DNA from: Bacillota bacterium
GTDB lineage: Bacteria > Bacillota > Clostridia > Christensenellales > DTU072
Length of the DNA stretch: 64,000 bases
Direction of reading: 5' to 3'
Assembly (NCBI GenBank): GCA_009781445.1
Contig: WQYD01000004.1
Coordinates: 6,768 to 70,767 of the forward strand
Shown: in pieces, positions 2,073 to 51,799 of the stretch
Position numbering within the stretch: the first letter of the stretch is position 1
Layout of the letters: each line of letters starts with the position of its first letter
Translations under genes and position numbers: made by a program
The notes under the pieces: model-generated
What the model was told of the DNA's origin: nothing
Database searches by the model: none
The model's input: only the letters and a program-made list of their open reading frames with translations

Positions 2073-3161
2073 ATGGCAACCGTGCAAGCAAAGCAAATCT
2101 CGTATTTTGACAATCTGACTGCTGAGATTGCTTTTCCGTGTCGCATTGTTAACAAGAGTTTTACTAATGTAGAGTTGTTTGCTGGTTGTGGCGGTTTGGC
2201 TCTCGGGCTTGAACAGGCAGGATTTGATACCTTAATGTTAAATGATTTTGACAATTCTGCGTGCCAAACATTAAAACAAAATCGCCCAAATTGGAAAGTT
2301 ATTTGTGAGGATATAACGAAACTTTCAAGCGAAGATTTATTAAAACAATTAAACCTTAAAAGGGGCGAATTGGATTTATTGTCGGGCGGTTATCCTTGCC
2401 AAAGTTTTAGTTACGCTGGCAAAAAACTTGGCATTGACGATGTTCGCGGAACTATGTTTTATCACTTCGCACAAATCTTAAAGCAATTATATCCAAAAAT
2501 GTTTTTAGCGGAAAATGTTAAGGGCCTTGTTAATCACGATGACGGTAAAACACTCAAAACCATGATAGAGGTGTTTGCCGAAGTCGGTTACAATGTTCAA
2601 TTTAAAGTTCTAAACGCGTGGGAACACGGCGTAGCACAAAAGCGCGAAAGAGTAGTTATTATCGGAATCCGTAAAGATTTAAATATTCAATATGACTTTC
2701 CAAAAACGCAATCGTATAAGCCAACGCTGAAAGACGCATTAAAAGATGTTCCGAAATCACAGGGTGCAAAATACCCCGAAAGCAAAGCAAAAGTTTTTGA
2801 CCTTGTGCCTCAAGGCGGTTGCTGGCGACATTTACCGCAAGACATAGCAAAAGAATACATGAAAGGCAGTTACAATCTTGGCGGTGGAAAAACTGGTATC
2901 GCAAGACGAATTTCATGGAACGAACCAAGTTTAACCCTCACTTGTTCGCCCGCACAAAAACAAACTGACCGTTGCCACCCAGACGAAACGCGACCCTTTA
3001 CGGTTCGCGAATACGCAAGAATACAATCATTTCCAGACGACTGGGCTTTTGTGGGAACAATCACAAATCAATATAAACAAATCGGAAATGCTGTGCCGGT
3101 AAACTTCGCAAAAGAAATAGGCTTAACCATTTTGAAAGCATTGAAGGGGGCAGAAGAATAA
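2073..3161 (+). CDS. DNA (cytosine-5)-methyltransferase, type II R-M
   Basis: All canonical m5C motifs are present: I ELFAGCGGLALG, IV GGYPCQSFS, VI ENVKGL, VIII QKRERV, IX REYARIQSFPDDW, X QIGNAVPV. Confidence 0.95.
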   Translation: MATVQAKQISYFDNLTAEIAFPCRIVNKSFTNVELFAGCGGLALGLEQAGFDTLMLNDFDNSACQTLKQNRPNWKVICEDITKLSSEDLLKQLNLKRGELDLLSGGYPCQSFSYAGKKLGIDDVRGTMFYHFAQILKQLYPKMFLAENVKGLVNHDDGKTLKTMIEVFAEVGYNVQFKVLNAWEHGVAQKRERVVIIGIRKDLNIQYDFPKTQSYKPTLKDALKDVPKSQGAKYPESKAKVFDLVPQGGCWRHLPQDIAKEYMKGSYNLGGGKTGIARRISWNEPSLTLTCSPAQKQTDRCHPDETRPFTVREYARIQSFPDDWAFVGTITNQYKQIGNAVPVNFAKEIGLTILKALKGAEE

Positions 3162-3895
3162 TGGCATACTTAGATTTTATAAGTAACGAAAATTTAGAGA
3201 AACATATCAGAGAAACTATCCTTAAATACGGCGATAGCCTCAAAGGCATTAACCTTGCAACTTTTAACAAAAATATTATTGACCCTATCAAGCTTACTTT
3301 TGACAGCATTGTGTTTAATAAGGATATTGAACAAATCATAGTCGCCGAACTAATACGGCAACGCGATAAAACAAATTCAAACACAATCGGTTATTTTAAC
3401 CAAAACATTTTCAAATATATTGAAGGTTGCGAAGTGCCAACGCATGGCTTTGATGTCATTTTCCACGGGAAGAAAACCGTTTATGTTGAAATAAAGAACA
3501 AGCACAATACAATGAACTCATCGTCCTCGCAAAAAACATTTATGCGGATGTTGAACCAAGTTTCAAAAGACCAAAATTGCGAATGTTACCTTGTTGAAAT
3601 AATCGCAAAGAAAAGCCAACATGTTGTTTGGAAAATGTCGCTTGACGGCGAACAAACTTCAAACGAAAGAATATATCGCGTTTCTGTTGACAAGTTTTAT
3701 GAATTTATTACTGGGGATAAAGGTGCTTTTGCTAAACTATGCGAAGTTTTACCGCAAGTTATAACAAAAATAGTCAAAACCGATTTTGCAAGCAAAATTG
3801 AACAAGACACCGTTTACAGCGAATTAAAAGAACACAGCAAAGATTTACTTAGGGCATTATACTTGCTTGCGTTTAAAACTTATGAAGGGTTTTAA
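3161..3895 (+). CDS. Putative type II restriction endonuclease (PD-(D/E)xK fold), partner of the m5C methyltransferase
   Basis: Its start overlaps the methylase stop (TAATG). It has a PD-(D/E)xK-like catalytic pattern GFD98 ... VE110-I-K112 (nt 3452-3496). Size (244 aa) and position are typical of a cognate REase. Specificity is not determinable. Confidence 0.65.
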   Translation: MAYLDFISNENLEKHIRETILKYGDSLKGINLATFNKNIIDPIKLTFDSIVFNKDIEQIIVAELIRQRDKTNSNTIGYFNQNIFKYIEGCEVPTHGFDVIFHGKKTVYVEIKNKHNTMNSSSSQKTFMRMLNQVSKDQNCECYLVEIIAKKSQHVVWKMSLDGEQTSNERIYRVSVDKFYEFITGDKGAFAKLCEVLPQVITKIVKTDFASKIEQDTVYSELKEHSKDLLRALYLLAFKTYEGF

Positions 3896-3898
3896 TGA

Positions 3899-4636
3899 TT
3901 GATGGGCTTGAACAAGTGCGAAACTTTGATGGTAAAAAATATTGCTGAAAAAATTCGGCACTTATTTTTCATTACTCAAATGATGATAAAAAACTTTGAT
4001 GATTTCAAAGAGTCATGTTCTTTTATAGCGAAAAGAAATTCGCAAATATTTTTTCGATCAAAAACCGAAGAAGAAAAAGAAGAAGTGTATTGCCATTTCG
4101 CAAGACCTTTTTATAATTGTTTGGAAATGTACTATGCGGTAACACAGCATTTTGATGTAGTAAAAAATCAAAATAAGGATAACATAAAGTTTATCGCGAA
4201 GTACGATATAAACTGGAAAGAAAAGAATTTGAGTAGCAATGAAACAAAATTTCTCAATGGAATGCGTAGTTACATAACGCATTACCAAATACCTATTTTA
4301 ACTATCAGAACCGCTGAGTTTCCTTGCGGATTACATACTCAGTTGCTGATAAGCAAAAACTCACTGTTGGGATATGACGGTTGGACTAAACAAGCAAAGA
4401 ACTTTATTGAAACTTATTACAAAAAAACTGAACCTATTAAAATACCGCTTTGTGAAGATTGCGAATATGCTAGAGAAAACTCAAGTGGCTTAGTTCAATG
4501 CAAAGGGCTTTATAAAGAGTGTAAGGACATTGAAATAGCCCCTATCGTAGAAAGGTGCATTAACAACGCGGTTCACTTTTATAACTGGCTTGTGTCGGCT
4601 CTTGCAAGTGAATGCAAAGAAGAAATTGGCGAATAG
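3899..4636 (+). CDS. Hypothetical protein downstream of the R-M pair; possible HEPN-like (Rx4H) protein with a Cys-rich C-terminal part
   Basis: 245-aa ORF (TTG at 3899, ATG at 3902), 4 nt after the REase stop. Motif MRSYITH (R123-x4-H128, nt 4265-4282) fits the HEPN Rx4-6H signature. It also has a CEDCEY...CKGLYKECKD cluster. No family recognised. Confidence 0.7.
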   Translation: MMGLNKCETLMVKNIAEKIRHLFFITQMMIKNFDDFKESCSFIAKRNSQIFFRSKTEEEKEEVYCHFARPFYNCLEMYYAVTQHFDVVKNQNKDNIKFIAKYDINWKEKNLSSNETKFLNGMRSYITHYQIPILTIRTAEFPCGLHTQLLISKNSLLGYDGWTKQAKNFIETYYKKTEPIKIPLCEDCEYARENSSGLVQCKGLYKECKDIEIAPIVERCINNAVHFYNWLVSALASECKEEIGE

Positions 4637-14394: not shown

Positions 14395-14534
14395 ACAGGT
14401 TGCAGGGGGCAGGGGGCAGGGGCGGAATTTTATTAATTCAGAATTAAGAATTCAGAATGCAGAATTATGGATTAATTAATAATGAGATTTAGAATCCTTC
14501 CCTGCAACCTGCCCCCTGCAACCTGCAACCTGCG
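14395..14534. repeat. Mosaic hairpin element: (GCAGGNN)n ... (ATTCAGA)n ... core 14481 ... (CTGCAAC)n
   Basis: Read directly. Confidence 0.85.
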
Positions 14535-17382: not shown

Positions 17383-17575
17383 AAATATAAAATATAAAAT
17401 ATAAATTACGGAATTATTATCTTGGGATTAGGGATTAGTTGCTTGGGATTAGAGTTAATAAATCCAACATTCGTAAATCGTAAGTCGTAAGTCGTCATTA
17501 CTCTTGAGTGAGATTTAGAATCCTCAATTTATATTTCATATTTTATATTTTATATTTTTCATTAATTCTGAATTA
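17383..17575. repeat. Mosaic hairpin element: (AAATATA)n, (GGGATTA)n, (CGTAAGT)n, core 17506, (TATTTTA)n; paralog of 39343-39597
   Basis: About 190 nt, nearly collinear with the element downstream of dnaN. Confidence 0.85.
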
Positions 17576-24245: not shown

Positions 24246-24330
24246 CTTTATTCCTTATATAATTTTTAAGTTAAATCCAATCCGTTAGCCCAAGTTAGCC
24301 TAAGCCTTTCACCTCAGCTTTACACCTCTC

Positions 24331-24443
24331 ACATATGTTTTGCGCCTACCAAAATATATGCCACTTTTCCGCCAATACATATGTTTTCATTCACTCTAAA
24401 CATATGTTTTCCGTTCGGCAATACATATGTTTTCATATGTTTC
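24331..24443. promoter_or_regulatory. Iteron-like array of five ACATATGTTTT(C) direct repeats upstream of the ComEC-like gene
   Basis: Copies at 24331, 24377, 24400, 24423 and 24433. The middle three are phased 23 nt apart. AAACATATGTTT is itself a palindrome. Confidence 0.6.
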
Positions 24444-24575
24444 GCAGGGGGGTTAAAGCGAACCGCCTCAAGCACGAAACCAAACTTCTCACCGCGCCTA
24501 CCACATTCATATGTGCATTACGGGGTACTAAAATTGTAACATATTTTTTGCCCTTTTTCCACCATAAAAATAAAC

Positions 24576-25066
24576 CTTGTGAAGTCGCGTGTTGAAGTGC
24601 GCTATGGCGCGTGAAGACGCTACGCTTGTGAAGACGCAAACAAGTTTGCTTATGAAGTCGCTTCGCTTGTGAAGAGTTGCTTCGCAACATGAAGGAAGTT
24701 TATATTTAATAATCCGCCATGCAGGCTTGCCTGCACTTCATGCGCCGTACAGGCGCACTTCACAAGCGTGCAACGCACGCGACTTCATAAGGCGCAAGCC
24801 GTCTTCACAAGTGAACGCAGTGAACGGCTTCATAAGCAAACTACTTGTTTGCGTCTTCACAAGGCGTAGCCGTCTTCACAAGCGTAGCGTCTTCACGCGC
24901 CAAAGGCGCACTTCACAAGCGTGCAACGCACGCGTCTCATACCTTAATGCGGAACGCCCACATATAATCCACCATGCAGGCTTGCCTGCACTTCATGCGC
25001 CGTACAGGCGCACTTCACAAGCGTGCAACGCACGCGACTTCATAAGGCGCAAGCCGTCTTCACAAG
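24576..25066. repeat. Two adjacent family-B hairpin elements (cores TAATCCGCCATGCAGGCTTGCCTGC at ~24711 and TAATCCACCATGCAGGCTTGCCTGC at ~24966; arms built from CTTGTGAAG / CTTCACAAG / CTTCATAAG words)
   Basis: Long reverse-complementary arms. A block of more than 100 nt (CCATGCAGGCTTGCCTGCACTTCATGCGCCGTACAGGCGCACTTCACAAGCGTGCAACGCACGCGACTTCATAAGGCGCAAGCCGTCTTCACAAG) is present twice. Confidence 0.8.
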
Positions 25067-25160
25067 CAAACTTCCTTGCGTCCTCAAGCGTCCTTTCTAT
25101 GCAACAAAAACTTTCCCCGCAATCTTTCAGCGTAACTCAATTCGCCACTTCTTAGCAACT

Positions 25161-25188
25161 TAATAAAAGAACATTTGTTCTTTTATTA
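25161..25188. promoter_or_regulatory. Perfect 13-bp inverted repeat with 2-nt spacer, containing AGAACATTTGTTCT (GAAC-N4-GTTC, SOS/Cheo-box-like)
   Basis: TAATAAAAGAACA-TT-TGTTCTTTTATTA. Confidence 0.6.
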
Positions 25189-25393
25189 AGTTTCACACAT
25201 TGTGTTGCGTGGGGCGGTTGTGCCTGCTTGCTTCGCTATCGGCAAGCGAATAAACCCCTTCGCATAGCCCACCTTCCGTTCCGCGTTTGTGCGGTTTACC
25301 GCGCTGTCCCACTGTAGATACCTGCCCTTTAAGCGTGCTGTTTCTTCGCCTTATCGCGCGCTATCGCCCCACCCAAGCCACTATCGCAACCAC

Positions 25394-25409
25394 TGTTTCA
25401 CATGGAACA
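25394..25409. promoter_or_regulatory. parS-like palindrome (variant centre)
   Basis: TGTTTCACATGGAACA versus parS TGTTNCACGTGAAACA / its complement TGTTTCACGTGNAACA; it differs at the central CG (CA here). Confidence 0.55.
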
Positions 25410-25887
25410 TTCTGCATATGTTGCTAATTTCCCGCGCATTATGCCATATCTGCCCCAACCGCTTGCCACTGCATATGTGTGGCACTATTTGCAGATTCCG
25501 CGCCCTCGCCCCTGAATCCGCCATACTGCGCCGTGCGTTGCGCGCTGGTTCACGGCAATCCGCCGTGCTTCCCCTATTCTGCTTCGCCATAGCCATACCG
25601 CCATTAAATGCGCGTTCGCCCCATTTGTCCGCGGTATCAGCGCACTTTTCTGCAATAGTGCGTGGTAGTTGCACGCTATTACTGCCCTGCGTTAATCCCT
25701 GCGTACCGCATTACTTTACCGCATAATACCGCGCTGTTGCGCCAATCTTTCCCCTATCTTCGGCTATTTCGCAAGTCCTGCGTGGTGTATTCCCGCCTAT
25801 TCGCCCACTTGCCTTATGCTTGCAAACCTAATACAATTTGCGTTGATTTGCGGATTTTACGGTGGTTTTCGCCCCAAAATAGCGCAA

Positions 25888-25903
25888 TGTTTCATGTGAA
25901 ACA
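25888..25903. promoter_or_regulatory. parS-like palindrome (variant centre), embedded in a ~35-nt extended palindrome (25878-25912)
   Basis: TGTTTCATGTGAAACA, one mismatch from TGTTTCACGTGAAACA. Flanked by AATAGCG ... CGCTATT. Confidence 0.6.
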
Positions 25904-25981
25904 TACGCTATTGTCCGTACAAAATGCGCCACTCTAATGGCGCGATATCTGCGAAAAATGCCATGCTATTCGCTATTTACA

Positions 25982-25994
25982 CGAACATATGTTC
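25982..25994. promoter_or_regulatory. SOS-box-like palindrome CGAACATATGTTC
   Basis: Matches the Gram-positive LexA (Cheo box) consensus CGAACN4GTTCG in 13 of 14 positions. Confidence 0.5.
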
Positions 25995-26531
25995 TTATAA
26001 CTTGTGTATTGAACCGCGTGCGCCATGCCCTAACCACTGCACGCTTACACGCATTCTTGGGCAATTATATCTTGATTTTGCAAATTCGCCTGCCGAAAGC
26101 ACTCTATTTGCGCGGTAAACCAATACCAAACAAATGCGCTTTTGCCACCGATTCTTCTACAAATAAACCACTAAGCGTTGGCTCATAGTGCGCAGTGCGT
26201 TAGCTTCTAGCGCACCGCGTACGCCGTGCCTCGTGCCTTTTACCGATATTGTTTTGGGCAAATATTGGTTTTGCTTGGCGTATGGACTGCGTGCGTTTCT
26301 GCATAGATTTGCAAGAAATCACGCCAAGCTGTGGGCGCGGTTTTACCACTCAGCAATCCTGCAACGCTTCGCCAACAGCGCAAGAATGCGCAATTTGCGC
26401 TTAACGCAAGTAATTGTTCCGTGCAATTCTAATCACAATATTGCGTGATGATATTTGAGTAAATAGTTCCGAATTTCCTCACACCAATATAAGTGTGTTA
26501 TTTTGTTCTGTTTTACGCGATTGCTTGCCAA

Positions 26532-26563
26532 TGTTTCACATGAAACATTGCGAACATATGTTC
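26532..26563. promoter_or_regulatory. Composite site: parS-like TGTTTCACATGAAACA (26532-26547) immediately followed by SOS-box-like CGAACATATGTTC (26551-26563)
   Basis: The 33-nt block ATGTTTCACATGAAACATTGCGAACATATGTTC is repeated with 3 changes at 27206-27238. Confidence 0.6.
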
Positions 26564-27206
26564 TTTTAGCGAAAAGCGTATCTTTTGCGTGTTTTTCAGC
26601 ACCAAGCCACGAAAGTAAGCATAGAATGGAACGCGTGTTCGTTTTATGTAAGTATACTTGCCGTGGGCGCGAAACGGTTGCCGTTCGCCAATTTCAGGCA
26701 AAAATGAGAGATTTTTGGGCAGAGATTGGACGGGGAAATATATGACTTTTTTACCGCCGTAAAAGTGCAGAATTTTTGGTTTTGGCGCGGTTCAAAGCAG
26801 TTTGGCGGTTCGCACTCTAAATTTTAAGGAATTGCTTTTGCGAAGTGAGAGGGCGGATAATTTACGCCACTGCGTGGCTGAATTTAGTGCAAATAGCAGT
26901 GGAATTTCGTGGATTGCTTTGATTTCTGTGAAATTTGCGGATATTCTGCGCCATTGCGTGGCGAAATATTGCCGAATAGGGCAAAACGAACAAAAAGCGA
27001 ACAAGCGTTTTCGGCACAATGGTAAATCGTGGTTGGTTTTAGCTTGCTTGCCCCAACTTTGGGATATTTTTTGCATTAGATATGCAATTTTTATAGCAAT
27101 TTTTGATATTTGCTTGCAGTCTTGCAAAATTTCGCGTATTTTCACTGAAATTTGCTTAGTTTTTGTGTGCAATTTGGTGTATTTTTCATTTTTGTGAAAT
27201 ATGCTA

Positions 27207-27238
27207 TGTTTCACATGAAACAATGCGAACATTTGTGC
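27207..27238. promoter_or_regulatory. Composite site: parS-like TGTTTCACATGAAACA (27207-27222) plus degenerate box CGAACATTTGTGC (27226-27238)
   Basis: Paralog of the 26531-26563 block. Confidence 0.6.
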
Positions 27239-27999
27239 TATTTAACAAATGGAACATATGTGTGTTTATTTTGGGTAAAATTTTAGGTGGGTAAAAATGT
27301 GCTAAAAATTAGGGAAAAACGGGTAAAAAGCAGATAAATTTGGGTAAAAAGCAGATAAATTTGGGTAAAAATCAGGCGGGAAGTGTGATAATTAGCAAAA
27401 GCAAGGGGAAAATTGGGGGTAAAGTACGGCAAATAGGGCGAAATCGGGGCTATTCGCGGACATTTTCACCACCATGGCAGTGGTTTTACCTCAGATTTGG
27501 CTACTTTCGCCTAAGTTTTCGCTTATTTCTGCCTAAAAACAGCGAAATTGGCGCGAAACTGCTTAGTTTGGTGAGGAATTTTGTGCTGAAATTTTTGGGT
27601 AGGGTTGCTGAAGGCTAAAAATGCCTTAAAAACGAATATTTGTGTGGAAATTTAGGTAAATTTTTCAAACATAAGTTTGTTTTTATGTGTGAAATTTTTG
27701 GGTAGGGTGAAAAATGCTGATTTTGCACACATTTTGGCGGATTTTATATGCAAAATCGGGCAAAATATTACCATTTTTTACTAAAATTTTACATAGAAAA
27801 TGCGCATTTTTAACCGCGTTTTGAGGCTCCAAAATTTTTGGGTAGGGTTTTAGGCTTAGAAAATTTTTGGGTGCGAAATTTAAGGAAATTTTACGCTTGA
27901 AAATTGCTTGATTCTGCGCGTTTTCTTGAGAATATGGCGAAAATCAAGCGTTTTGCTGATTGTGAAATTTTGGCTTATGTTTAACATGGAACGGAAAGA

Positions 28000-28015
28000 T
28001 GTTCCACATGAAACA
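28000..28015. promoter_or_regulatory. parS-like palindrome (variant centre)
   Basis: TGTTCCACATGAAACA equals the Bacillus-type parS TGTTCCACGTGAAACA with only the central G changed to A. A weaker copy, TGTTTAACATGGAACG, lies at 27978-27993. Confidence 0.6.
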
Positions 28016-28330
28016 GTATTTAGCCTTGAAATAGGCGGTTTTTGCGCTATTTTTGAGGTATTTACCGTGGTGTTTACGGGAAATTTATGTGCTGAAAGGC
28101 AGGCTATTTAATGTGCTTGATTTTGGGCATTTTCGTGAGTTTTTGCCCATTTTCTGCACTCGCTTAAGGCGGTTATCCGCGGTTTTGCCCTCGCTTAGCA
28201 TTTTGTATTGATATAATTAAATTTTACATTAGAATTGCCCCTAAACGCAAGGAAAAAATTGAGTAATTTTTGCTAATTTTGCGCACGGGAAAGAGGGTTT
28301 GAGGGGTGCGGGCGGAACAGTGCGCGCTTT

Positions 28331-28634
28331 GCCGTGGGTTTTACCCGCGGTTATGCAAATACTGCCCTCTGCGGGGCAGTTACGGATTGATTTAGAGTTA
28401 GCGTTTGGGATTTTGTGCTGTGCCGTGGGTTTCACCCACGGTTATGCAAATACTGCCCGCTACGGGGCAGATAAGGGATTGGGGTAAAGGTTAACCCAAG
28501 ATTGGGGCTTTAGGGCTTTGGGCTTCGCCGTGGGTTTTACCCAAGGCTCAAGCAAATTCTGCCCCTTTGGGGCAGTTGAGGATTAAACTATCCAATAATG
28601 AGATTTAGAATCCTCAATTCTGCATTCTGAATTA
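28331..28634. repeat. Three tandem copies (starts 28331, 28422, 28527) of a two-hairpin unit GCCGTGGGTTTYACCCRCGGTTATGCAAATACTGCCC...GGGGCAG, ending in the common core (28597) and an (ATTCTGC) arm
   Basis: Read directly. An inverted homolog lies at 49667-49743. Confidence 0.8.
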
Positions 28635-28719
28635 GTCCAAATCTGTATTGAATAATGCACCGTTCTGCATTCAGCGCGCGTGGGCGAAGTGCAAACAAAG
28701 CGAAGTAGGTTTATTTGGG

Positions 28720-29970
28720 CTAAAAACAAAGCTTTTCAAGGGCTTTTTGGTAGATTTCTTGCAGTTTTTTGAAGTTTCCAAGGGAAATGTTTTCGTCTTT
28801 GGCGTGGACTGTGGACGGTTCGCTTGGGAAAACGGGCCCGAAGGATACGCCAAGTGGCAGGACGCGCGCGTAAGTTGCGCCACCGATGGCAAGAGGGGTT
28901 GAGGCGGTGTCGCCCGTTACTTCGCTATAAGCGGACAAAAGCCCAAGAACAAGAGGGTGATTGGGGGGAACATATAGGGGCGGATTGTGTGCGCCCTCGC
29001 TGACGGTGCAAAAGGGCAGGGCTTCTGCAAGGCGCGCCGTTATTTCTTCTTTTTTGAATGAAACCGGGTAGCGAATATCTGTTTTTATGGTAATAGTGCC
29101 GTTTTCGGCGGAAATTACACCAAGATTTATGGTTAGCGCGCCACTTTTGCTATCGCTTAGCTTAAGATTGACGCCTTCGCCGTCTGAATTCTTTAAAGCG
29201 GAATGTAGTTTAGTTAAGTTTTCGGCTTTTTCTTCGCTAATCAATGAGGAAAGCAACTTAATTATTGCGTTTTCGCCCTCTTTAGGACGGCTACCGTGGG
29301 CGGATTTTCCGCGCGCTTCTATAGTTTTACCGCATTTTAGCGTTGCAGTCGCATAGTCGGGTACGATATTTGCCTGTTCGCCACCGCTGATATCGCGGAT
29401 TTCGGGGGGTAGGGGGAAGGATATTTTGTGGCGCAGAACGCCTTTTTCGCAATTTATTACAGGGAAATCCGAATCGGGCGAAAAGCCTAATTGTGGCATT
29501 TCTTCGGTTTCTTTGTACCGATCCATGCACTTCCAACCGCTTTCTTCATTGCAACCAAGGATAAACCTTAGGCGCATTTTGGGCTTTTTGCCACCGGCAA
29601 GAATGCGCGCCACGGCGTAAATAACTGCCACAAGAGGCCCTTTGTCGTCCTCTGCACCGCGTGCGTAAATTCTGCCGTTGTGAATCTCTGCGCCGAACGG
29701 CGGATATGTCCAACCAACCCCCGCAGGCACAGTGTCAAGGTGTGCAAGAACCCCGAACAATTCGCCCTCGCCGATTTCAGCCCAACCGCAATAGTTGTCT
29801 ATATTCTTTGTTTTAAATCCGAACCCCTTAAGCAAGTCAAGCGTGAAGTTAAGCGCGGTAGCGTTGCCCTCGCCGAACGGCATTCCTTCAAGCGGGGGCA
29901 CGGAAGAGGTGTCTATCATTAATAGCTTTCTTAGCGCGGTTACTGAGGCTTCGTAATTCGTGTTTTCCAT
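28720..29970 (-). CDS. M20-family dipeptidase (PepV/Sapep-like)
   Basis: GVLAHLDTVPAG, ARGAEDDKGPLVAV and NEESGWK motifs of M20 metallopeptidases; 416 aa. Confidence 0.85.
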   Translation of the reverse strand: MENTNYEASVTALRKLLMIDTSSVPPLEGMPFGEGNATALNFTLDLLKGFGFKTKNIDNYCGWAEIGEGELFGVLAHLDTVPAGVGWTYPPFGAEIHNGRIYARGAEDDKGPLVAVIYAVARILAGGKKPKMRLRFILGCNEESGWKCMDRYKETEEMPQLGFSPDSDFPVINCEKGVLRHKISFPLPPEIRDISGGEQANIVPDYATATLKCGKTIEARGKSAHGSRPKEGENAIIKLLSSLISEEKAENLTKLHSALKNSDGEGVNLKLSDSKSGALTINLGVISAENGTITIKTDIRYPVSFKKEEITARLAEALPFCTVSEGAHNPPLYVPPNHPLVLGLLSAYSEVTGDTASTPLAIGGATYARVLPLGVSFGPVFPSEPSTVHAKDENISLGNFKKLQEIYQKALEKLCF

Positions 29971-30306: not shown

Positions 30307-30347
30307 TGTGGATAACTATGTGGATAACTCATTATAAATGTGGATAA
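30307..30347. promoter_or_regulatory. Cluster of three perfect DnaA boxes (TGTGGATAA = complement of TTATCCACA) followed by an AT-rich stretch; candidate oriC or DnaA-regulatory site
   Basis: Boxes at 30307-30315, 30319-30327 and 30339-30347, all in the same orientation and each extended to TGTGGATAAC. AT-rich AATATGTAATATTTTGTAAAATTATGCAATTATGATA at ~30357-30395. Confidence 0.7.
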
Positions 30348-30474: not shown

Positions 30475-30632
30475 CAGCGCACAATGCACAGCGCACAATG
30501 AAGGATTCTAAATCTCACTCAAGAGTAATGACGACTTACGACTTACGATTTACGAATGGTGGATTCTAAATCTCAGTATTAGTTAATTAATTCTGAATTA
30601 AACTATACCCTATGCCCTATGCCCTATACCCT
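30475..30632. repeat. Mosaic element: (CAGCGCA)n, core 30503, (ACGACTT)n, core 30561, (AATTCTG), (CCCTATG)n
   Basis: Read directly. Confidence 0.85.
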
Positions 30633-31704: not shown

Positions 31705-32034
31705 ATGAAAAAGGCGAACAGGCTAACTAATAACGCAAGCTTTAGCTACATTTATAAGCACGGCAAAGCGGTTCACGGCGCGGTTTTGGCGGTTCACTTT
31801 GTGGTGGCAGGTTCAATTAAAGTTGGCATAAGCGTTTCCAAAAAAATAGGAAAAAGCGTTATCCGCAGTAAGGTTAAAAGGCGCATAAAGGAAAGTTTCC
31901 GCCACATTATCCCTTTGCTTTCGGCAAAATGCAATTATGTGGTTTCCGCAAAGGAAGGTATCGCCGAAAAGGATTTTGCCTATATTGATAAAGAATTGAG
32001 GGCATTGCTGAAGAGGGTGAAACATTTAGATTAA
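31705..32034 (+). CDS. rnpA: Ribonuclease P protein component
   Basis: 109 aa, basic, immediately after rpmH. Has the typical N-terminal KKANRLTNNASFSYIYKHG. Confidence 0.9.
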   Translation: MKKANRLTNNASFSYIYKHGKAVHGAVLAVHFVVAGSIKVGISVSKKIGKSVIRSKVKRRIKESFRHIIPLLSAKCNYVVSAKEGIAEKDFAYIDKELRALLKRVKHLD

Positions 32035-32130
32035 TTCAGAATTAAGAATTCAGAATGCAGAATTAAGGATTTATTTATAATGAGATTTAGAATCCTTCCC
32101 TATGCCCTATGCCCTATAACCTATGCCCTC
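32034..32130. repeat. Mosaic element: (ATTCAGA)n, core 32079, (CCCTATG)n
   Basis: Read directly; it sits inside the rnpA-yidD operon gap. Confidence 0.85.
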
Positions 32131-34502: not shown

Positions 34503-35843
34503 ATGCAAAAAAAGCCAAGAACACAAACGATAGTAGCTATTGCAACCCCTGCTTCGGCGGGGGCTATCGGCATTATACGGCTTTCGGGTGAAGATAGCCT
34601 TAAAATCGCGCTTAAGGTGTTTAGGGCAAAGGGTTTTGAAAGAGGTAAGATTGAACCAAGAAGAATGTATCTTGGGGAAATAAGCGCGCAAAACTTTAAG
34701 GATAAGGCATTTTGTGTGTTTTTTAAATCCCCCGAATCTTACACGGGCGAAGATATGGTTGAGTTTCATACGCACGGCGGAACAAGCGTCTTAAAAGGGG
34801 TTCTTCGCCTCATGTGCGACATTGGCGCGCGCCCTGCAACGGCAGGCGAATTTACAAAGCGCGCGTTTTTAAACGGCAAAATGACTCTTGCCGTGGCAGA
34901 GGGCATAGAGGACATGATTAACGCGGAAAGCGAAGCCGAAGCTATGCAGGCGTATAGGCTTCTTTCGGGCGAACTTGCAGGGGGAATTAAGGACACAATT
35001 TCCTTGCTTCTTGAAGCCGTAAGCACGGTGGACGCCTCGCTTGATTACCCTGAGGAACTTTTGGAAGATATGCGCGAACCTGTTAGGCAGTGCCTTTGCG
35101 AAGCAAAAAAGAACCTTGAAGAAACCCTTAAATCCTCTTTGGTTAACCGCCATTTAAAAGACGGGGTTACCGCGGTAATCGCAGGTTTAACCAATGTGGG
35201 CAAAAGTAGCCTTTTAAACGCGCTATTAAAAGAGGATAGGGCGATTGTAACGAATATCGCAGGGACGACAAGGGATACCCTTAAAGAAGCCCTTGAAATC
35301 GGCGGGGTTAAAATCAATATTCTTGACACCGCAGGGATAAGAAACAGTACAGACGAAATTGAAAAGGAAGGAATCGCGCGCGCTAAAAAAGCCTCACAGA
35401 GTGCGGATTTAGTGCTGTTTGTTACGGATTTATCCGCCCCCGAAACCCCCGAAGAATCCGCTTTTTTTGATTCTCTTAAGGGCAAAAAGATTATTAAAAT
35501 CGGCAACAAAGGCGATATTAAAAAGTACGAAAAAGGCGAAGATATTATTGTTGAAGCGCGCGCAGGCAAAAACATTTCCGCTTTAGTAGAACTTATCAAA
35601 AACGCACTTGAGGTATCCAAAAGCGGGGAATTGGTTATCTTAACGCGCGAAAGGCATATCAAGCTAACCGAAGAGGCCTTACTAAACATTTCGCTTTCTC
35701 TTAAAAACTTTAATAATCTTACCGCGGATTTATTGTCCTCTCAAATCAAAACCGCCCACAAACTTTTATCCCAAATCACAGGCACAGACGCAAGCGAAGA
35801 AATCGTGGATAAAATTTTTAGTAGTTTTTGTGTGGGGAAATAA
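34503..35843 (+). CDS. mnmE: tRNA modification GTPase MnmE
   Basis: TIVAIATP N-terminus, G1 GLTNVGKSSLLNAL, G3 DTAGIR, C-terminal CVGK. Confidence 0.95.
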   Translation: MQKKPRTQTIVAIATPASAGAIGIIRLSGEDSLKIALKVFRAKGFERGKIEPRRMYLGEISAQNFKDKAFCVFFKSPESYTGEDMVEFHTHGGTSVLKGVLRLMCDIGARPATAGEFTKRAFLNGKMTLAVAEGIEDMINAESEAEAMQAYRLLSGELAGGIKDTISLLLEAVSTVDASLDYPEELLEDMREPVRQCLCEAKKNLEETLKSSLVNRHLKDGVTAVIAGLTNVGKSSLLNALLKEDRAIVTNIAGTTRDTLKEALEIGGVKINILDTAGIRNSTDEIEKEGIARAKKASQSADLVLFVTDLSAPETPEESAFFDSLKGKKIIKIGNKGDIKKYEKGEDIIVEARAGKNISALVELIKNALEVSKSGELVILTRERHIKLTEEALLNISLSLKNFNNLTADLLSSQIKTAHKLLSQITGTDASEEIVDKIFSSFCVGK

Positions 35844-35847
35844 TAGA

Positions 35848-36070
35848 AAGGCCATAGGCCATAGGGCAAAGGCCATAGAGTTGGATTCTAAATATAATTA
35901 TTGATAAGGCAAAAGGCGTTGGGTGAAAAATAATAGGGCAAAGGCCATAGGGTTGGATTCTAAATATAATTATTGATAAGGCAAAAGGCGTTGGGTGAAA
36001 AATAATTCGGAAAGAAGGAAGTTTTAATAATAATTCCGCCCCTATCCCCTATGCCCTATGGCCTATGGCC
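35848..36070. repeat. Mosaic element with (GGCCATA)n arms and a 72-nt tandem duplication (35864-35935 and 35936-36005), each copy carrying a degenerate core GGATTCTAAATATAATT
   Basis: The two 72-nt copies differ at about one position. The outer arms GGCCATAGGCCATAGGGC / GCCCTATGGCCTATGGCC are inverted copies. Confidence 0.85.
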
Positions 36071-36132
36071 TTTTAAACACCTTTCCCTCAATTTTTCTTG
36101 AATTCTAATCTCACTTGTTATATACTTAAACT

Positions 36133-37542
36133 ATGATTGACTTACACAAGGTTTGGGAAGACGCAAAGTCAGAATTATCCGTGGATATTACCGCGGTGGA
36201 TTTTGTGCTATGGATTGAACCGCTTTTGCCTTTTTCAATTAAAGATAACTGCTTAATTTTAACCGCACCCACAACTAACTCACGAAAGACTGCGGAACGG
36301 CTTTACGGTGATTTTATTATAAGGGCTTTGAGGCGGGCTTTGCCGTCTATTAAGGGTGCGAAAATTATCACCGAAGAAGAACAAAGCAAGTATATAGACG
36401 ATCATGACGAATTCATAGATAACCAAATAATTATCAATTCTAAGGAAAAAAAGAAACCGCGCATAAATCCGTTCGTGCCACGGTTTACTTTTGATAAGAT
36501 TAAGCTTACGCGCTATGAGGGCAATAAAATGGCGGTTTATGCGGCGGAATCCGTGGCGAAAAACCCCGGCGGTGCGGAAACTTATGTGGGTTATTGCAAT
36601 CCTTTGTTTCTTTACGGCGGAACGGGGCTTGGCAAAACTCACCTCTTGCACGCTATCGGAAATTATCTTTACGATAATATGCCAAGCAAAAAGGTGCTGT
36701 ATGTTACCTCTGAAAAACTTATCAATGATTTTACCGAAGCAATAAAGAGTTCAAATTTTAATTCGTTCCGTGAAAAGTACCGCATGGTAGATGTGCTAAT
36801 GATAGACGATATTCAGTTCTTGCAAAAAAGAACAGGGCTTCAAGAGGCTTTCTTCCATATATTTAATGATCTTTATCAAAACAACAAGCAAATCGTGCTA
36901 ACAAGTGATCGTTTGCCAAGTGAAATCAGCACTCTTGAGGATCGTATGCGTTCGCGTTTTGAAAGCGGGCTAATTCAAGATATTCAAAAACCCACTCTTG
37001 ACGATCGCGTGGTGATAATTAAAGATAAGGTTCTTTCTTTAAATTACAGCCTAATTGAATCAGGAAATGAGGACAGCGTTATTTGCTTAAATGACGAAGC
37101 AACCTTTTATATCGCCGAAAAATTTGAAGATAATGTGAGAGAACTTGAGGGGGCAATCGGCAAGGTTTATATGGCTTCGCGGATGCTTAACGATATCCTT
37201 GTGGATATCAATATGGTTACGAAGGCTTTGCAATCAAACACCCAAAAGAAAGAGGAATTGAATGAAACTTCCCTTATGAACGCGCTTTGTTCTTATTTCC
37301 GCATTCAAAAAGCTGATATGGTGGGCAGGCGCAGAACTAAAGATGTCGTTGATGCGCGACAAATCGGCATTTGGTTTTTTACAGAACTTTTAAAAGAATT
37401 ACCCCTTGAAGCAATAGGGCAAATCTTCGGCGGACGCGATCACTCAACCGTAATCCATTCCCGCGATACTGTTGCTTCTAAAATTGAAGAAAATAATAAA
37501 GAGATTTTGAGGAAAATAAAGGACATTAAGGATTTACTGTAA
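36133..37542 (+). CDS. dnaA: Chromosomal replication initiator protein DnaA
   Basis: Walker A GGTGLGKTHLL, Walker B VLMIDDIQFL, C-terminal DNA-binding signature GRDHSTVIHS. Confidence 0.97.
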   Translation: MIDLHKVWEDAKSELSVDITAVDFVLWIEPLLPFSIKDNCLILTAPTTNSRKTAERLYGDFIIRALRRALPSIKGAKIITEEEQSKYIDDHDEFIDNQIIINSKEKKKPRINPFVPRFTFDKIKLTRYEGNKMAVYAAESVAKNPGGAETYVGYCNPLFLYGGTGLGKTHLLHAIGNYLYDNMPSKKVLYVTSEKLINDFTEAIKSSNFNSFREKYRMVDVLMIDDIQFLQKRTGLQEAFFHIFNDLYQNNKQIVLTSDRLPSEISTLEDRMRSRFESGLIQDIQKPTLDDRVVIIKDKVLSLNYSLIESGNEDSVICLNDEATFYIAEKFEDNVRELEGAIGKVYMASRMLNDILVDINMVTKALQSNTQKKEELNETSLMNALCSYFRIQKADMVGRRRTKDVVDARQIGIWFFTELLKELPLEAIGQIFGGRDHSTVIHSRDTVASKIEENNKEILRKIKDIKDLL

Positions 37543-37566
37543 ATTTTAAGCAGAGCTTAAAATTTA

Positions 37567-37811
37567 ATTCAGAATTAAGAATTCAGAATGCAGAATTATG
37601 GATTAATTAACTTATAATGAGATTTAGATTCCACCATGTTTCTCGTTTCATGTTTCTCGTTTCACTATTTATAATGAGATTTAGATTCCGCCATTCGTAA
37701 ATCGTAAGTCGTAAGTCGTCATTACTCTTGAGTGTGATTTAGATTCCATTACTTTTCACTCTTGATTCTTCATTTCCACCACTATGCCCTATAACCTATG
37801 CCCTATGCCCT
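37567..37811. repeat. Composite mosaic element with three cores (37616, 37673, 37730) and modules (ATTCAGA)n, (TTTCTCG)n, (CGTAAGT)n, a (TTTTCAC...)-type module and (CCCTATG)n
   Basis: Read directly. Its last 32 nt form the left arm of a perfect inverted repeat around the AT-rich spacer. Confidence 0.85.
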
Positions 37812-38104
37812 AAAAAATTTGTTAACCCCTGTTCACAACTGTTTATAACACTTAACAAGTTATCAACAAAAACTAAGCAACCTTTTGTTCCTTTTCTTTC
37901 TAAAAACCTAAAAACAAAGCAATTTTAAAAGTTATTAACATATCCACATAGCTTATTATTATTGTTATTATCTTTATCCTAATTATTAAATTATTATATA
38001 AATTTCCCACTGAAAATTTCCTGCTTGATTTTTATATTTTTTTTGTGTAAAATAGTAATAATCAATTTAGAATTTAAAATTATAAATTTCAAATGTCGTA
38101 ATTG
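37812..38104. other. oriC-like AT-rich dnaA-dnaN spacer with degenerate DnaA boxes
   Basis: TTATCAACA (37860-37868) and ATATCCACA (37940-37948) are each one mismatch from TTATCCACA. A very AT-rich run covers 37950-38100. This is the classical Firmicute origin location. Confidence 0.6.
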
Positions 38105-38201
38105 AGGGCATAGGGCATAGGTTATAGGGCATAGTGAAGGATTTAAATATTATTATTAGTTAATCCACCATTGTGCGCTGTGCGTTGTGCGTTGTGCGCT
38201 G
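38105..38201. repeat. Mosaic element: (CATAGGG)n arm (right arm of the 32-bp inverted repeat), degenerate core, (TGCGCTG)n
   Basis: 38105-38136 is the exact reverse complement of 37780-37811. Confidence 0.9.
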
Positions 38202-38228
38202 AAAAAACAATCACCAAAAAGAGGAACT

Positions 38229-39332
38229 ATGAAATTTTTTATTAACCCTGCCGAGCTTTCTGAAGCTTTAAATATTGTTTCGCGCGCGCTTTCTTCTAAG
38301 CCTGCCACCCCGATACTTGAGGGGCTTTTAATCCTTGCGGAAGGAAACAGAATTACCCTAACCGCCACGGATATGGATTTTTTTATTGAAACGAAAGTTT
38401 CAGCAGATATTAAAATTGAGGGTGAAGCAGTTATCAAAGGAAAATTCTTAACGGATTTCGTTAGAAAACTCTCAGCGTTAAGCAACATTGAAATTGAAAA
38501 AATCGGCGAAACTCTAATGGTTAAATACCTTGGAAACGAAGTGGAAATCCCTTGCCTTAATGAGGAAGTTTTCCCCATTCTCACAAATATAAATGACGAT
38601 ATTTCATTTATAATTAAAGAATCCGATTTTAAAGAACTGCTTGAAACTTCTCTCTTTTGTATCGCCGCGGACGACACACGCCCCATATTAAAAGGTTGCC
38701 TTATTGAAGCGAAAGATCAAACGGTTACGGCAGTCGCGCTGGACGGATACCGCCTTGCAGTTACTAAAGCCGAAATTAAAGATAAAAAAGGCGAAGTAAA
38801 AGTGGTTATCCCCGGCAAGATTATGGGGGAAATTGTTAAAATCCTATCCGACAGTGAAAACGATATTAAGATTAATATCCAAAGAAACCTTGTTTTATTT
38901 AACTTAGGACACACAAGAATAACCACAAGGCTTCTTGAGGGTGAATATATTCAGTACGAAAAGATTTTACCAAACAAATGCTACACCACGGTTAATATTA
39001 GCAGAGAAAAACTTCTTGAATGCCTTGATCGCGCTTCTCTAATGGTTAAGAACAAGAAAAGCAATTACCTTAAGCTAAGCATAGGCGATAATGTAATCGG
39101 CATTAACACAAATTCCGAATACGGCGCGATTAGGGAAAATGTGGCTTGCGAAATCGGCGGAAACAACCTTGAAATAGCATTTAATTCAAAATATCTTCTT
39201 GAAGCGTTAAGCCGAATTAAAAACGAATATATAAAAATTGAACTTGCCTCAGGCAACGCACCCGCAGTAGTAATGCCCGTGGACGGCGAAAAGTTTAAGT
39301 TTATTGTGCTACCTGTGAGAATAATGAATTAA
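38229..39332 (+). CDS. dnaN: DNA polymerase III beta sliding clamp
   Basis: 367 aa from MKFFINPAELSEALNIVSRA with RBS AAGAGGAA. The track ORF start at 38187 reads through the repeat arm and is rejected. Position after dnaA. Confidence 0.93.
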   Translation: MKFFINPAELSEALNIVSRALSSKPATPILEGLLILAEGNRITLTATDMDFFIETKVSADIKIEGEAVIKGKFLTDFVRKLSALSNIEIEKIGETLMVKYLGNEVEIPCLNEEVFPILTNINDDISFIIKESDFKELLETSLFCIAADDTRPILKGCLIEAKDQTVTAVALDGYRLAVTKAEIKDKKGEVKVVIPGKIMGEIVKILSDSENDIKINIQRNLVLFNLGHTRITTRLLEGEYIQYEKILPNKCYTTVNISREKLLECLDRASLMVKNKKSNYLKLSIGDNVIGINTNSEYGAIRENVACEIGGNNLEIAFNSKYLLEALSRIKNEYIKIELASGNAPAVVMPVDGEKFKFIVLPVRIMN

Positions 39333-39342: not shown

Positions 39343-39597
39343 AAATATAAAATATGAAATATGAAATACAAATTATGGAATTATTATCTTGGGATTAGAG
39401 ATTAGTTGCTTTAGATTAGAGTTATGATAAACAAATCCAACATTCGTAAATCGTAAGTCGTAAGTCGTCATTACTCTTAATGAGATTTAGAATCCTCAAT
39501 TTATATTTTTAGTTAAGCCTGCAAGGCGACACCAAGGTTCTGCCACAGGCAGGTTCTTATATTTTATAATTCATATTTTTCCTTAATTCTGAATTAA
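39343..39597. repeat. Mosaic hairpin element, paralog of 17383-17575, with a ~55-nt insertion (39503-39560)
   Basis: Same module order: (AAATATA), (GGGATTA), (CGTAAGT), core 39479, (TATTTTA). Confidence 0.85.
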
Positions 39598-44757: not shown

Positions 44758-44908
44758 AGGGGGCAGGTTGCAGGGTGCGGGTTGCAGGGTTGGAATCTAA
44801 ATCTCATTATGAAACGAGAAACGAGAAACGAGAAACATGGCGGATTCTAAATCTCATTATTAGTTAAATAATCCATAATTCTGCATTCTGAATTCTTAAT
44901 TCTGAATT
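44757..44908. repeat. Mosaic element: (GCAGGNT)n, core 44792, (ACGAGAA)n, core 44842, (AATTCTG)n
   Basis: Read directly. Confidence 0.85.
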
Positions 44909-44922
44909 AAAAAGGGGGCAAT

Positions 44923-51037: not shown

Positions 51038-51299
51038 TTTACTGACCTCCAAACCTTTGTTTTCTAAATAATATCATAACCAATGTTAAATTGCAACAAT
51101 TTTCATAATAATTATTAACTATTTTTAATACCAAATGTTTGTGTATCAATTATTCACTTTGTTATGTCTTTTTGCGATACACTGCTTCACCCAATCTGCA
51201 AATCAATCCGCGCCTTTGCCGAACAAACGGCAAGTATCTTTTTATGATCTTTTGCATATACTATTTACATAGTGATATTACATATGATATCATATTTAT

Positions 51300-51554
51300 A
51301 TGGCAACCGTAGTATACAAAAGGCAACCCGAAAAATACCTAAAAAGTGTGGACGCTAACACTTATAGGAAATTAAGGTGTGCGTTAGAGGGTTTGGCAGA
51401 CGGCAAAGGTGATATTGTAAAACTGCAAGGCAGTGAATACTATAGGCTTAAAATTGAGCATTATAGGGCAATATTTACCTATGACAAGGCGCAAGACATT
51501 ATTACGGTTGAAGAACTAAACACAAGAACAAATATTAAATATAGAAGGTGGTAA
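51300..51554 (+). CDS. RelE/ParE-family type II toxin
   Basis: 84 aa. YYRLKIEHYRAIFTYD...IITVEEL pattern typical of RelE/ParE toxins. Confidence 0.75.
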   Translation: MATVVYKRQPEKYLKSVDANTYRKLRCALEGLADGKGDIVKLQGSEYYRLKIEHYRAIFTYDKAQDIITVEELNTRTNIKYRRW

Positions 51555-51555
51555 T

Positions 51556-51786: not shown

Positions 51787-51799
51787 GCGTGGAATTATT

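Follow-up and report, generated by a model that had tools for sequence, protein, structure and literature searches.

A probable chromosomal parS array with CA/TG-centred sites in an ACGT-depleted Bacillota genome

Five perfect-armed 16-mers of the form TGTTYCA-CA/TG-TGRAACA and one degenerate partner were found inside a 4.5 kb ORF-poor block in a 64 kb stretch of the genome of an uncultured Christensenellales bacterium of the Bacillota (the window). These palindromes probably constitute a chromosomal parS array beside the replication origin, in which CACATG has taken the place of CACGTG through the elimination of the tetranucleotide ACGT in this lineage. A ParB/Spo0J-type protein would load at the array, which occupies a non-coding block of its own adjoining the origin. 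That ParB binds there in this organism we infer from indirect signs: the conservation of the arms, the natural co-occurrence of such sites with canonical ones, and ChIP-seq of P. aeruginosa ParB at the GTTTCAT half-site. Few bacterial cis-elements are as conserved as the CACGTG core of parS, whose central CpG is common to ParB and Noc sites. A deviation shared by a whole array is best explained by the genome-wide purge of ACGT.

The palindrome array and its surroundings

The window was searched with the pattern TGTTNCACRTGRAACA, allowing at most two mismatches. This gave 11 strand-matches against 0.39 expected, all confined to about 2.6 kb (25394-28015), and 0 of 100 shuffles reached 11. The search recovered the five palindromes of the first-pass annotation with their sequences and positions (Table 1), and agrees with its view that they exceed chance and represent a functional parS-type variant. 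Compared with the parS consensus TGTTNCACGTGAAACA, each of the five, read on the appropriate strand, shows a single mismatch and keeps 12 of 12 arm positions; the deviation had been said to lie at the central dinucleotide only, and does so in 5 of 5. The weak sixth copy of that annotation (site A) is also real, with two arm mismatches and three mismatches to TGTTNCACGTGAAACA in all. The centre of all five perfect-armed sites is CA/TG instead of the CpG of the strict consensus (CACGTG core), and a CG-centred site with at most two mismatches was not found in the whole window. Since CA/TG replaces the central CpG, every site is intrinsically asymmetric. The half-site GTTTCAC is only about 2-fold above expectation window-wide, with no concentration in the block. 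In the literature corpus searched, neither the exact 16-mers nor their 14-mer cores occurred.

Table 1. Features of the window discussed in the text
Feature	Position	Strand	Remarks
Type II restriction-modification pair	2073..3895	+	C5-cytosine methylase and Eco47II-family endonuclease (GGNCC type); Pfam
ORF-poor, repeat-rich block	24246..28719	.	Holds the whole array; between MBL-fold gene and M20-peptidase gene
parS variant TGTTTCA-CA-TGGAACA	25394..25409	.	TGTTNCACRTGRAACA pattern match
parS variant TGTTTCA-TG-TGAAACA	25888..25903	.	Inverted copy of 26532 site
parS variant TGTTTCA-CA-TGAAACA	26532..26547	.	GAACATATGTTC starts 4 nt after
parS variant TGTTTCA-CA-TGAAACA	27207..27222	.	GAACATTTGTGC starts 4 nt after
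Degenerate partner site A, TGTTTAA-CA-TGGAACG	27978..27993	.	Distal member of 22-bp-spaced pair adjoining M20 gene
parS variant site B, TGTTCCA-CA-TGAAACA	28000..28015	.	Proximal member of conserved pair
M20-family peptidase gene	28720..29970	-	Syntenic anchor marking the orthologous parS position in relatives
Three perfect DnaA boxes (TTATCCACA)	30307..30347	-	2.3-4.9 kb from array
dnaA	36133..37542	+	8-11 kb from array; AT-rich dnaA-dnaN spacer after dnaA

The same architecture can be observed in the Spo0J/ParB parS sites of B. subtilis, Caulobacter, Thermus and others, where several 16-bp inverted repeats whose 7-bp arms are identical cluster beside oriC and dnaA. The window copies moreover occupy positions orthologous to the canonical sites of relatives. 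They differ from these systems in that every copy is CA/TG-centred and that all are found in one 2.6 kb non-coding stretch, not scattered within genes. ParB sites packed into a short origin-proximal segment are also found in the dense arrays of Streptomyces and of Myxococcus xanthus, which has 22 parS near the origin (PMC3899335). Here, however, the sites number only 5-6 and stand about 500-800 bp apart, and the non-coding block around them is rich in repeats and shows a GC-skew switch.

That the block conceals a gene or encodes a known RNA was considered and rejected. Its longest stop-free run (160 codons) falls within the range of shuffles (mean 118, maximum 259), no Rfam family matched, and promoter- and terminator-like matches are at chance level. 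Gene calling gave a single 77-aa call in the part covered by an independent assembly (L001, window positions ~24990-28719). Palindromes of the type GAACATATGTTC and TTTTTGGGTAGG repeats are also present in the block.

To the right of the block, the gene order is rnpA-yidD-yidC-jag-mnmE-dnaA-dnaN. The dnaA-dnaN spacer is AT-rich, carries near-consensus DnaA boxes and probably forms the part of oriC that unwinds. The array is thus clustered near oriC and dnaA, as is typical of chromosomal parS, and the 2-5 kb earlier estimated between the sites and a DnaA-box cluster matches the measured distance to the three perfect boxes. GC skew changes sign near 26400-26600 within the block, and elsewhere in the window it tracks gene orientation. 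A replication origin inside the block, as the skew switch might suggest, was rejected, as DnaA boxes are absent between 23070 and 30307.

Elimination of ACGT

ACGT occurs once in the window, against about 146 expected, and CACGTG occurs 0 times against 11 expected (word depletion was scored against a Markov expectation). A second sequence of the same genome (L010), which overlaps the first 11.8 kb of the window and extends 9.8 kb further left, contains 0 ACGT against 48 expected. Across both, about 74 kb of genome, there is one ACGT and no CACGTG. Canonical sites elsewhere in the genome, which the first-pass annotation had named as a finding that would speak against it, are very unlikely with such counts.

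The depletion acts on the DNA itself, whichever of the three reading phases the word falls in, by context-dependent synonymous codon choice. NAC followed by GTN was found 0 times and NAT followed by GTN 111 times, against a C:T split of 1069:1110 elsewhere. ACG is followed by T once, compared with 216 ACG in other contexts, and 0 of 57 CGT codons are preceded by A. Because the purge reaches every phase through synonymous codons, canonical parS is itself excluded from the genome.

Further short words are affected as well, with observed/expected counts of 2/101 for TCGA, 2/61 for CTAG, 23/206 for CCGG and 32/199 for GGCC. ACGT, TCGA and CTAG are reduced to 0.7-3% of expectation, and 23 of the 64 hexamer palindromes do not occur at all. 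A general depletion of CpG was rejected, since CGCG (374/411) and GCGC (497/527) are normal.

This is the pattern of restriction-site avoidance: short palindromes are depleted, composition-matched words are not, and all codon phases take part. As in other prokaryotes with such avoidance, 4- and 6-bp palindromes are selectively depleted and a restriction-modification pair is encoded nearby. Unlike in these, the depletion is of unusual depth and a near-universal cis-element has been overwritten. Restriction systems are present in the genome, as the GGNCC-type pair attests. This pair matches the absence of GGWCC (0 occurrences) and the scarcity of GGNCC (26 against ~134 expected), but not the depletion of ACGT. 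It is the only restriction-modification pair in the window; a restriction or methylase gene specific for ACGT was not identified there. The depth of the purge is unusual for a cellular chromosome and is a more unusual feature of this genome than the parS variant. In a literature search, no paper tying parS to restriction avoidance was found.

Long-term selection against restriction-enzyme targets would be the most likely cause by which the lineage eliminated ACGT, as we infer from this pattern, and deamination of methylated cytosine possibly helped the loss. The canonical parS contains ACGT, and every CG-centred site would have been forced to change or vanish. One C-to-T transition at the centre destroys ACGT while keeping the half-site GTTTCAC perfect and turning the other half into GTTTCAT. 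The first-pass annotation had listed fixed CpG deamination products among its possibilities. The single C-to-T transition is retained from this idea, but it belongs to a loss of ACGT across the whole genome that had escaped the first reading.

Related sites in this genome and in other bacteria

A pair of sites spaced by 22-23 bp at the 3' end of the M20 gene has been kept in the relatives L005, L007/L132 and L133. Site A corresponds to TGTTTACCGTGGAACA in L007, TGTTTCACGTTTAACA in L133 and TGTTTCATGTTAAACA in L005, and site B to TGTTTCACGTGAAACG, TGTTCCACGAGGAACA and TGTTTCCCGTGAAACA, respectively. The centre of site B is CG in 3 of 3 relatives and CA only in the window. Canonical parS was found in L007/L132 and in L003, a distant Clostridiales MAG with five canonical sites upstream of rnpA/yidC and soj nearby. 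The array therefore holds positional orthology with accepted parS of related genomes. In the equivalent block, L133 has two perfect sites with CA/TG centres, and its CG-centred sites have arm mismatches. A YidC scan for a close relative among species-representative genomes returned only a 40%-identical Clostridiales MAG.

Relatives have ACGT at 0.67-0.94 of expectation, and a purge of CATG was observed in L009/L136/L137. The purge is not required for CA/TG sites to arise, because L133 combines its two perfect CA/TG sites with near-normal ACGT (29 observed, 43 expected), and variant-only clusters are found elsewhere in contigs with normal ACGT (L034, L051, L065, L086 and L110).

Three of the five window sites (25888, inverted, 26532 and 27207) are paralogous copies with flanking identity over 22-37 nt. 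Over 22 nt, the 25888 site shows 100% complementarity with 26531-26552, and the 27207 repeat is 89% identical to that at 26531 over 37 nt. The number of independent centre changes is accordingly about 2-3, not 5. The arms and flanks of the 25394 site repeat those of the 28000 site in inverted orientation, but both centres read CA on the + strand; that the two are mutually inverted except at the centre implies independent centre changes. A single ancestral centre mutation, followed by duplication within the block, would make the shared deviation a matter of hitch-hiking unrelated to the purge. The shared flanks of the three copies, which include an adjacent GAACAT motif, fit such a history. It does not extend to 25394 and 28000, whose flanks differ from these and whose centres are not inverted along with their arms. 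The orthology of site B to CG-centred sites of three relatives also contradicts it, and it leaves unexplained why a genome with one ACGT has 0 CG-centred sites; as the source of the shared centre it is quite unlikely. The arms, by comparison, are intact at 12 of 12 positions in all five sites although most flanks have diverged. This conservation suggests purifying selection on the arms and supports the reading as a parS array.

CA/TG-centred sites are not restricted to this lineage. Among metagenome contigs with the exact variant 16-mer, 40 of 120 have it beside parA, parB, rsmG, mnmG, mnmE or dnaA, and the variant sites in such clusters are often interleaved with canonical sites, in many unrelated genomes. 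When the ascertaining site of each locus is excluded, the centres in these loci are CG in 69 cases, CA/TG in 30, TA in 3 and all others in 4. CA/TG is thus by far the commonest non-CG centre, at about 30% of additional sites in the sampled clusters. The CA/TG core is not exotic and occurs commonly in the parS of other bacteria as well. Whether the variant implies freedom from ACGT was examined on the metagenome loci, where only ~6 of ~85 informative ones are ACGT-free (L026, L032, L048, L054, L092 and L118), a count with no background rate alongside. Their gene contexts are ordinary, except for L054, where the site lies within mnmE.

As the commonest non-canonical centre in natural parS clusters, CA/TG is a form that ParB proteins evidently tolerate. 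For P. aeruginosa, ChIP-seq of ParB showed that the half-sites GTTTCAT and GTTCCAT are enriched in vivo (PMC5961200). The altered half of the window sites is GTTTCAT or GTTCCAT, both of which belong to the half-sites bound there (GTTCCAC, GTTTCAC, GTTCCAT and GTTTCAT; PMC5961200). It carries the same C-to-T change at the innermost position as the P. aeruginosa halves bound in ChIP. Those are isolated half-sites without spreading, whereas the sites here are full-length and join the altered half to a perfect one. ParB of P. aeruginosa also binds with lower affinity in vitro when the CACGTG core is damaged (PMC4368675), and the window sites may therefore be weaker.

The ParB protein and the meaning of the array

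The first-pass annotation had reported no parA, parB or rsmG gene, and this stands. Pfam searches of all ORFs of at least 150 aa and of the shorter rnpA and yidD, and tblastn with the proteins of a relative, found no parB or rsmG in the window; parA was not found there either. Nor was parB found in the window and L010 together (~74 kb around the origin). The gene parB normally follows mnmG-rsmG. Downstream of mnmG in the window, rsmG-parB is missing. In relatives, rsmG is followed by the gene for a well conserved ParB (66-75% identity).

The missing genes would agree with a loss of ParB during rearrangement of the origin region, which would leave the sites as non-functional, decaying relics. 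However, in L007/L132 and L009 rsmG-parB likewise does not adjoin mnmG. With 12 of 12 arm positions at all five sites, better than the sites of ParB-bearing relatives and amid diverged surroundings, decay is very improbable.

Two of the earlier suggestions concerned the protein itself. The first was a ParB with altered central specificity, and in its stronger form the ParB of the lineage would have come, by co-evolution, to favour the asymmetric CA/TG centre, a specificity switch and not a tolerated mismatch. It is true that all perfect-armed sites of the window are CA/TG, and that in L133 the perfect-armed sites are CA/TG while those with CG have arm mismatches. The residues of the recognition helix and of the GHAR motif are nevertheless invariant between L005 and L133, which have CA/TG sites, and P0168, which has canonical sites. 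CA/TG and CG centres are also interleaved within single clusters of many unrelated genomes, and the exclusivity of CA/TG is already accounted for by the purge of ACGT. An altered specificity is thus unsupported and unneeded, and the switch unlikely.

The second was a Noc-like paralog. The Noc-binding site (NBS) has the consensus ATTTCCCGGGAAAT, whose half-site bears A at position 2 and C at position 7. The window sites have G and A at these positions (TGTTTCA..) and do not match the NBS. They resemble the NBS of Bacillota as ParB-family-type palindromes near the origin of a Bacillota genome, but they keep the parS-specific bases, and the NBS contains CCGG, itself depleted in this genome. The clade has only one origin-linked ParB-family protein. 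It passes the ParB model, and the proteins of the relatives score 224-232 bits on the Noc model TIGR04285, below its cut-off of 315 bits. The Noc-like paralog therefore finds no support, nor is one needed. In a broader form, the palindromes would bind some other protein, either this paralog or an unrelated transcription factor, and merely resemble parS. Further DNA-binding factors at the block are indeed suggested by its GAACATATGTTC palindromes and TTTTTGGGTAGG repeats. Against this, 14 of 16 positions are those of parS, the sites are orthologous to canonical parS of relatives, the mismatches to ATTTCCCGGGAAAT fall at the very positions that separate both consensuses, the ParB-family protein of the clade stays below the Noc cut-off, and promoter-like sites are not enriched in the block. 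Another binder is highly improbable.

The reading as a parS array, shaped by the purge of ACGT, describes a genome that bars the CACGTG core and yet retains a well-kept array with a single-transition substitute. It illustrates concretely how restriction-site avoidance can constrain an essential non-coding element, and the depth of the k-mer purge deserves study in its own right. The prediction of parS in genomes should take in CA/TG-centred sites. The array is also a natural test substrate for the weight of the central base pair in ParB nucleation and in CTP-dependent clamp closure; for ParB loading, the 16-mer forms TGTTTCACGTGAAACA, TGTTTCACATGAAACA and TGTTTCATATGAAACA can be set side by side, with TGTTTCACATGAAACA contrasted with the CG form. 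A further, rather unlikely, step would be that the purge forced the rewriting of a near-universal centromere sequence, that ParB may have co-adapted to obligatorily asymmetric CA/TG sites, and that the purge of each Christensenellales lineage (ACGT here, CATG in L009/L136/L137) may dictate the permitted parS core. If true, genome defence would here have driven the co-evolution of ParB and parS in nature.

The variant parS sites and their counterparts in relatives

The five 16-mers and the weaker copy reported in the first-pass annotation were all found at exactly the positions reported, and in each of the five (read on the appropriate strand) the centre is indeed the sole difference from the canonical TGTTNCACGTGAAACA. 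The whole window holds 11 strand-matches to TGTTNCACRTGRAACA with at most two mismatches, against 0.39 expected from dinucleotide-preserving shuffles, none of which attained this count. All 11 are confined to 25394-28015, and the window contains no CG-centred site with at most two mismatches.

The five sites are not fully independent of one another. Site 25888 repeats 26532 in inverted orientation (22 nt, 100% complementary), and 26532 and 27207 are 89% identical over 37 nt, the adjacent GAACAT motif included. Sites 25394 and 28000 are mutually inverted together with their flanks, except for the centre, where the + strand has CA at each site. This is expected if a CG-centred ancestral pair underwent C-to-T changes independently, on opposite strands. 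The arms are intact at 12 of 12 positions in all five sites amid mostly diverged flanks; this points to continued selection and hence to a ParB in the organism.

The relatives' contigs L005 and L133 preserve the order M20 peptidase, amidase, rnpA, yidC, jag and mnmE, followed by mnmG, rsmG, parB and gltX; on the 2.39-Mb scaffold to which L007/L132 belong, ~5 kb separate rsmG-parB-gltX from the M20 gene. L005, L007 and L133 each carry a parS-like pair, 22-23 bp apart, at this gene's 3' end, in the same position as that of the window (Table). The centre of site B is CG in all three relatives and CA in the window only. Five canonical sites also occur upstream of rnpA/yidC, with soj nearby, in L003, a more distant Clostridiales MAG. 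Through the orthologous pair and these canonical sites, comparison with relatives identifies the palindromes as parS, and the original reading of them was right.

Table. Features of the window, and site pairs at the M20 gene of relatives
Feature	Position in window	Details
C5-cytosine DNA methylase	2073-3161	
Eco47II-family restriction endonuclease	3161-3895	GGNCC type
ORF, 245 aa	3899-4636	no Pfam match
Array-bearing block	24246-28719	4,474 bp, between MBL-fold gene and M20-peptidase gene
GAACATATGTTC-type palindromes	25169, 25983, 26552, 27227, 27252, also 24398	
Repeat nest	24575-25090	dense direct and inverted repeats based on CTTCACAAGCG / CGCTTGTGAAG
108-nt unit	24709, 24964	within repeat nest
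TTTGGGTAAAAA repeats	27270-27375	related to AAATTTTTGGGTAGGGT
AAATTTTTGGGTAGGGT motif	27587-27605, 27690-27708, 27830-27848	three copies
Site pair, window	27978, 28000	distal A TGTTTAACATGGAACG; proximal B TGTTCCACATGAAACA
Site pair, L007		distal A TGTTTACCGTGGAACA; proximal B TGTTTCACGTGAAACG
Site pair, L133		distal A TGTTTCACGTTTAACA; proximal B TGTTCCACGAGGAACA
Site pair, L005		distal A TGTTTCATGTTAAACA; proximal B TGTTTCCCGTGAAACA
60-nt unit	28326-28581	three copies, just past M20 gene 3' end
Three perfect DnaA boxes	30307-30347	right of block
Gene order right of DnaA boxes		amidase gene, rnpA, yidD, yidC, jag, mnmE, dnaA, dnaN
Tandem duplication	35861-36006	near-exact, 72-73 nt, mnmE/dnaA spacer
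dnaA	36133-37542	
Rearranged origin region	34503-39332, 50393-55139	compared with relatives
Dispersed MITE/REP-like intergenic elements	30483-30625, 37600-37810, 38105-38150, 17461-17524, 39434-39496, 14432-14503, 1832-1934, 32031-32095, 44792-44911	inverted ends GGATTCTAAATCTCA; internal micro-repeats CGACTTACGA, CCCTATGCCCTATG

The block and the origin neighbourhood

The block contains no ORF exceeding random-sequence expectation and no Rfam match, and its promoter- and terminator-like matches are at chance level. Its GC skew switches sign near 26.4-26.6 kb. The GAACATATGTTC-type palindromes fit the Gram-positive LexA/Cheo-box pattern GAAC-N4-GTTC. Of the window's eight matches to this pattern, six fall inside the block, and two of these follow a parS site at a distance of 4 nt. 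L005 has two copies of TTTTGGGTAGG at the corresponding position (460-499), which makes this a conserved element beside the parS pair. An independent ENA assembly of the genome breaks at the repeat nest, for which Rfam gave only a weak, sub-threshold hit to Gut-1 (E = 0.73). Each 60-nt unit carries two GC-rich hairpins, CCGTGGGT..ACCCGCGG and CTGCCC..GGGCAG, and looks like a REP-like element.

The DnaA boxes, the rnpA-to-dnaN gene set and an AT-rich dnaA-dnaN spacer mark this as the chromosomal origin region. Judged by its YidC homologues, the closest of which is 61% identical, the organism belongs to the uncultured Christensenellales and is about equidistant from four retrieved relatives (53-57% YidC identity). 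The origin region is rearranged: dnaA-dnaN directly follows mnmE, while mnmG is inverted, 16 kb away and followed by ~1 kb without a sizeable ORF, and the usual mnmG-rsmG-parB-gltX continuation is missing in the window. MITE/REP-like elements typically lie just past gene ends, including in the vicinity of the DnaA-box cluster and of the dnaA-dnaN spacer.

As the first-pass annotation said, the window has no parA, parB or rsmG; the further 9.8 kb to its left, covered by the same-genome locus L010, has none either, and the organism's own ParB was not found in these sequences. In five relatives' contigs (L005, L132, L133, L136 and L137) parB follows rsmG, and tblastn with Soj found no parA adjoining it. 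This suggests a ParB-only arrangement at this locus, possibly for SMC loading instead of ParA-driven segregation. The origin-linked protein of the ParB family in this clade passes the model for the ParB domain but scores too low for Noc (~230 bits against a cut-off of 315). The Noc-like paralog once proposed as a possible reader of the variant is unneeded. The same holds for a ParB with altered central specificity: the HTH/recognition residues G-K-x-R-x-x-V-x-N-x-x-R-L-L ... L-S-A-G-H-A-R do not vary from lineages that have CA/TG sites to those that have canonical ones, giving no sign of re-tuned specificity.

Tolerance of the CA/TG centre elsewhere

A scan of the metagenome collection for the exact variant 16-mer returned at least 120 loci. 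Par/origin genes (parA, parB, rsmG, mnmG, mnmE, jag, dnaA, dnaN) adjoin it in 40 of the 120 listed, which is far above what a random 16-mer could yield. Many of these loci (L012, L013, L016, L018, L021, L050 and L124) have canonical sites interspersed with the variant at distances of a few tens of bases. After removal of one ascertaining site per locus, the sites with at most one arm mismatch among the loci listed had the centres CG (69), CA/TG (30), TA (3) and four further types represented by a single site each; among the tolerated deviations, central transitions thus predominate. In P. aeruginosa, the half-sites GTTTCAT and GTTCCAT were bound by ParB in ChIP-seq (PMC5961200), but damage to the CACGTG core reduces affinity in vitro (PMC4368675). 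The searchable literature contains neither the exact variant sequences nor a link between parS and restriction avoidance. An exceptionally dense parS array was seen in the metagenome locus L060 (ODTK01003963.1, 6229 bp): its 6.2 kb contain 27 sites with a CG centre and 2 with a CA/TG centre, none with more than one arm mismatch.

The ACGT purge and the parS core

ACGT is the most extreme among many purged words: it occurs once in the window, where a maximal-order Markov model predicts ~146, and not at all in L010 (48 expected). CACGTG is absent from the window (11 expected). General CpG loss was ruled out, since CGCG and GCGC stand at 0.91 and 0.94 of expectation; GCGCGC is overrepresented (76 against 6). 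All three reading phases show the purge, which acts on the DNA itself. Before a GT-starting codon, Asp/Asn/His/Tyr codons end in T 111 times and never in C, against 1110 T and 1069 C endings in other contexts. The Thr codon ACG precedes a T-starting codon once (216 in other contexts), and none of 57 Arg CGT codons follows an A-ending codon. Also depleted in the window are TCGA (2 observed/101 expected), CTAG (2/61), GGTC (3/67), CCGG (23/206), GGCC (32/199), CCWGG (3/~77) and the Shine-Dalgarno core GGAG/CTCC (8/93 and 9/82); GGWCC, GWGCWC and 23 of the 64 hexamer palindromes are absent. The loss of short words extends to L010. The stretch 2073-4636 holds one of the window's two TCGA and one of its two CTAG words, consistent with a recently acquired element.

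Canonical parS contains ACGT and so cannot exist in a genome purged in this way. The observed centre change is the single transition that eliminates this word. For the deviation common to all five sites, the best explanation is that ACGT was purged throughout the genome, this cis-element included, and that nature tolerates the element in its CA/TG form. Two perfect CA/TG sites are already present in the block of L133, where ACGT is near-normal. The variant is thus older than the purge or unconnected with it, and the purge accounts for the CA/TG centres being the only ones.

Biologically, the extreme k-mer purge is more surprising than the variant sites. In the relatives ACGT stands at 0.67-0.94 of expectation, and related Christensenellales and Clostridia contigs carry tetranucleotide purges of their own: CATG is absent from L009, L136, L137 and L138 (30, 23, 13 and 7 expected), and CTAG occurs 0-1 times in L003, L007 and L132 against 24-29 expected. 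A CATG purge would forbid the CACATG variant of parS, so the parS core open to a lineage may be dictated by its purge.
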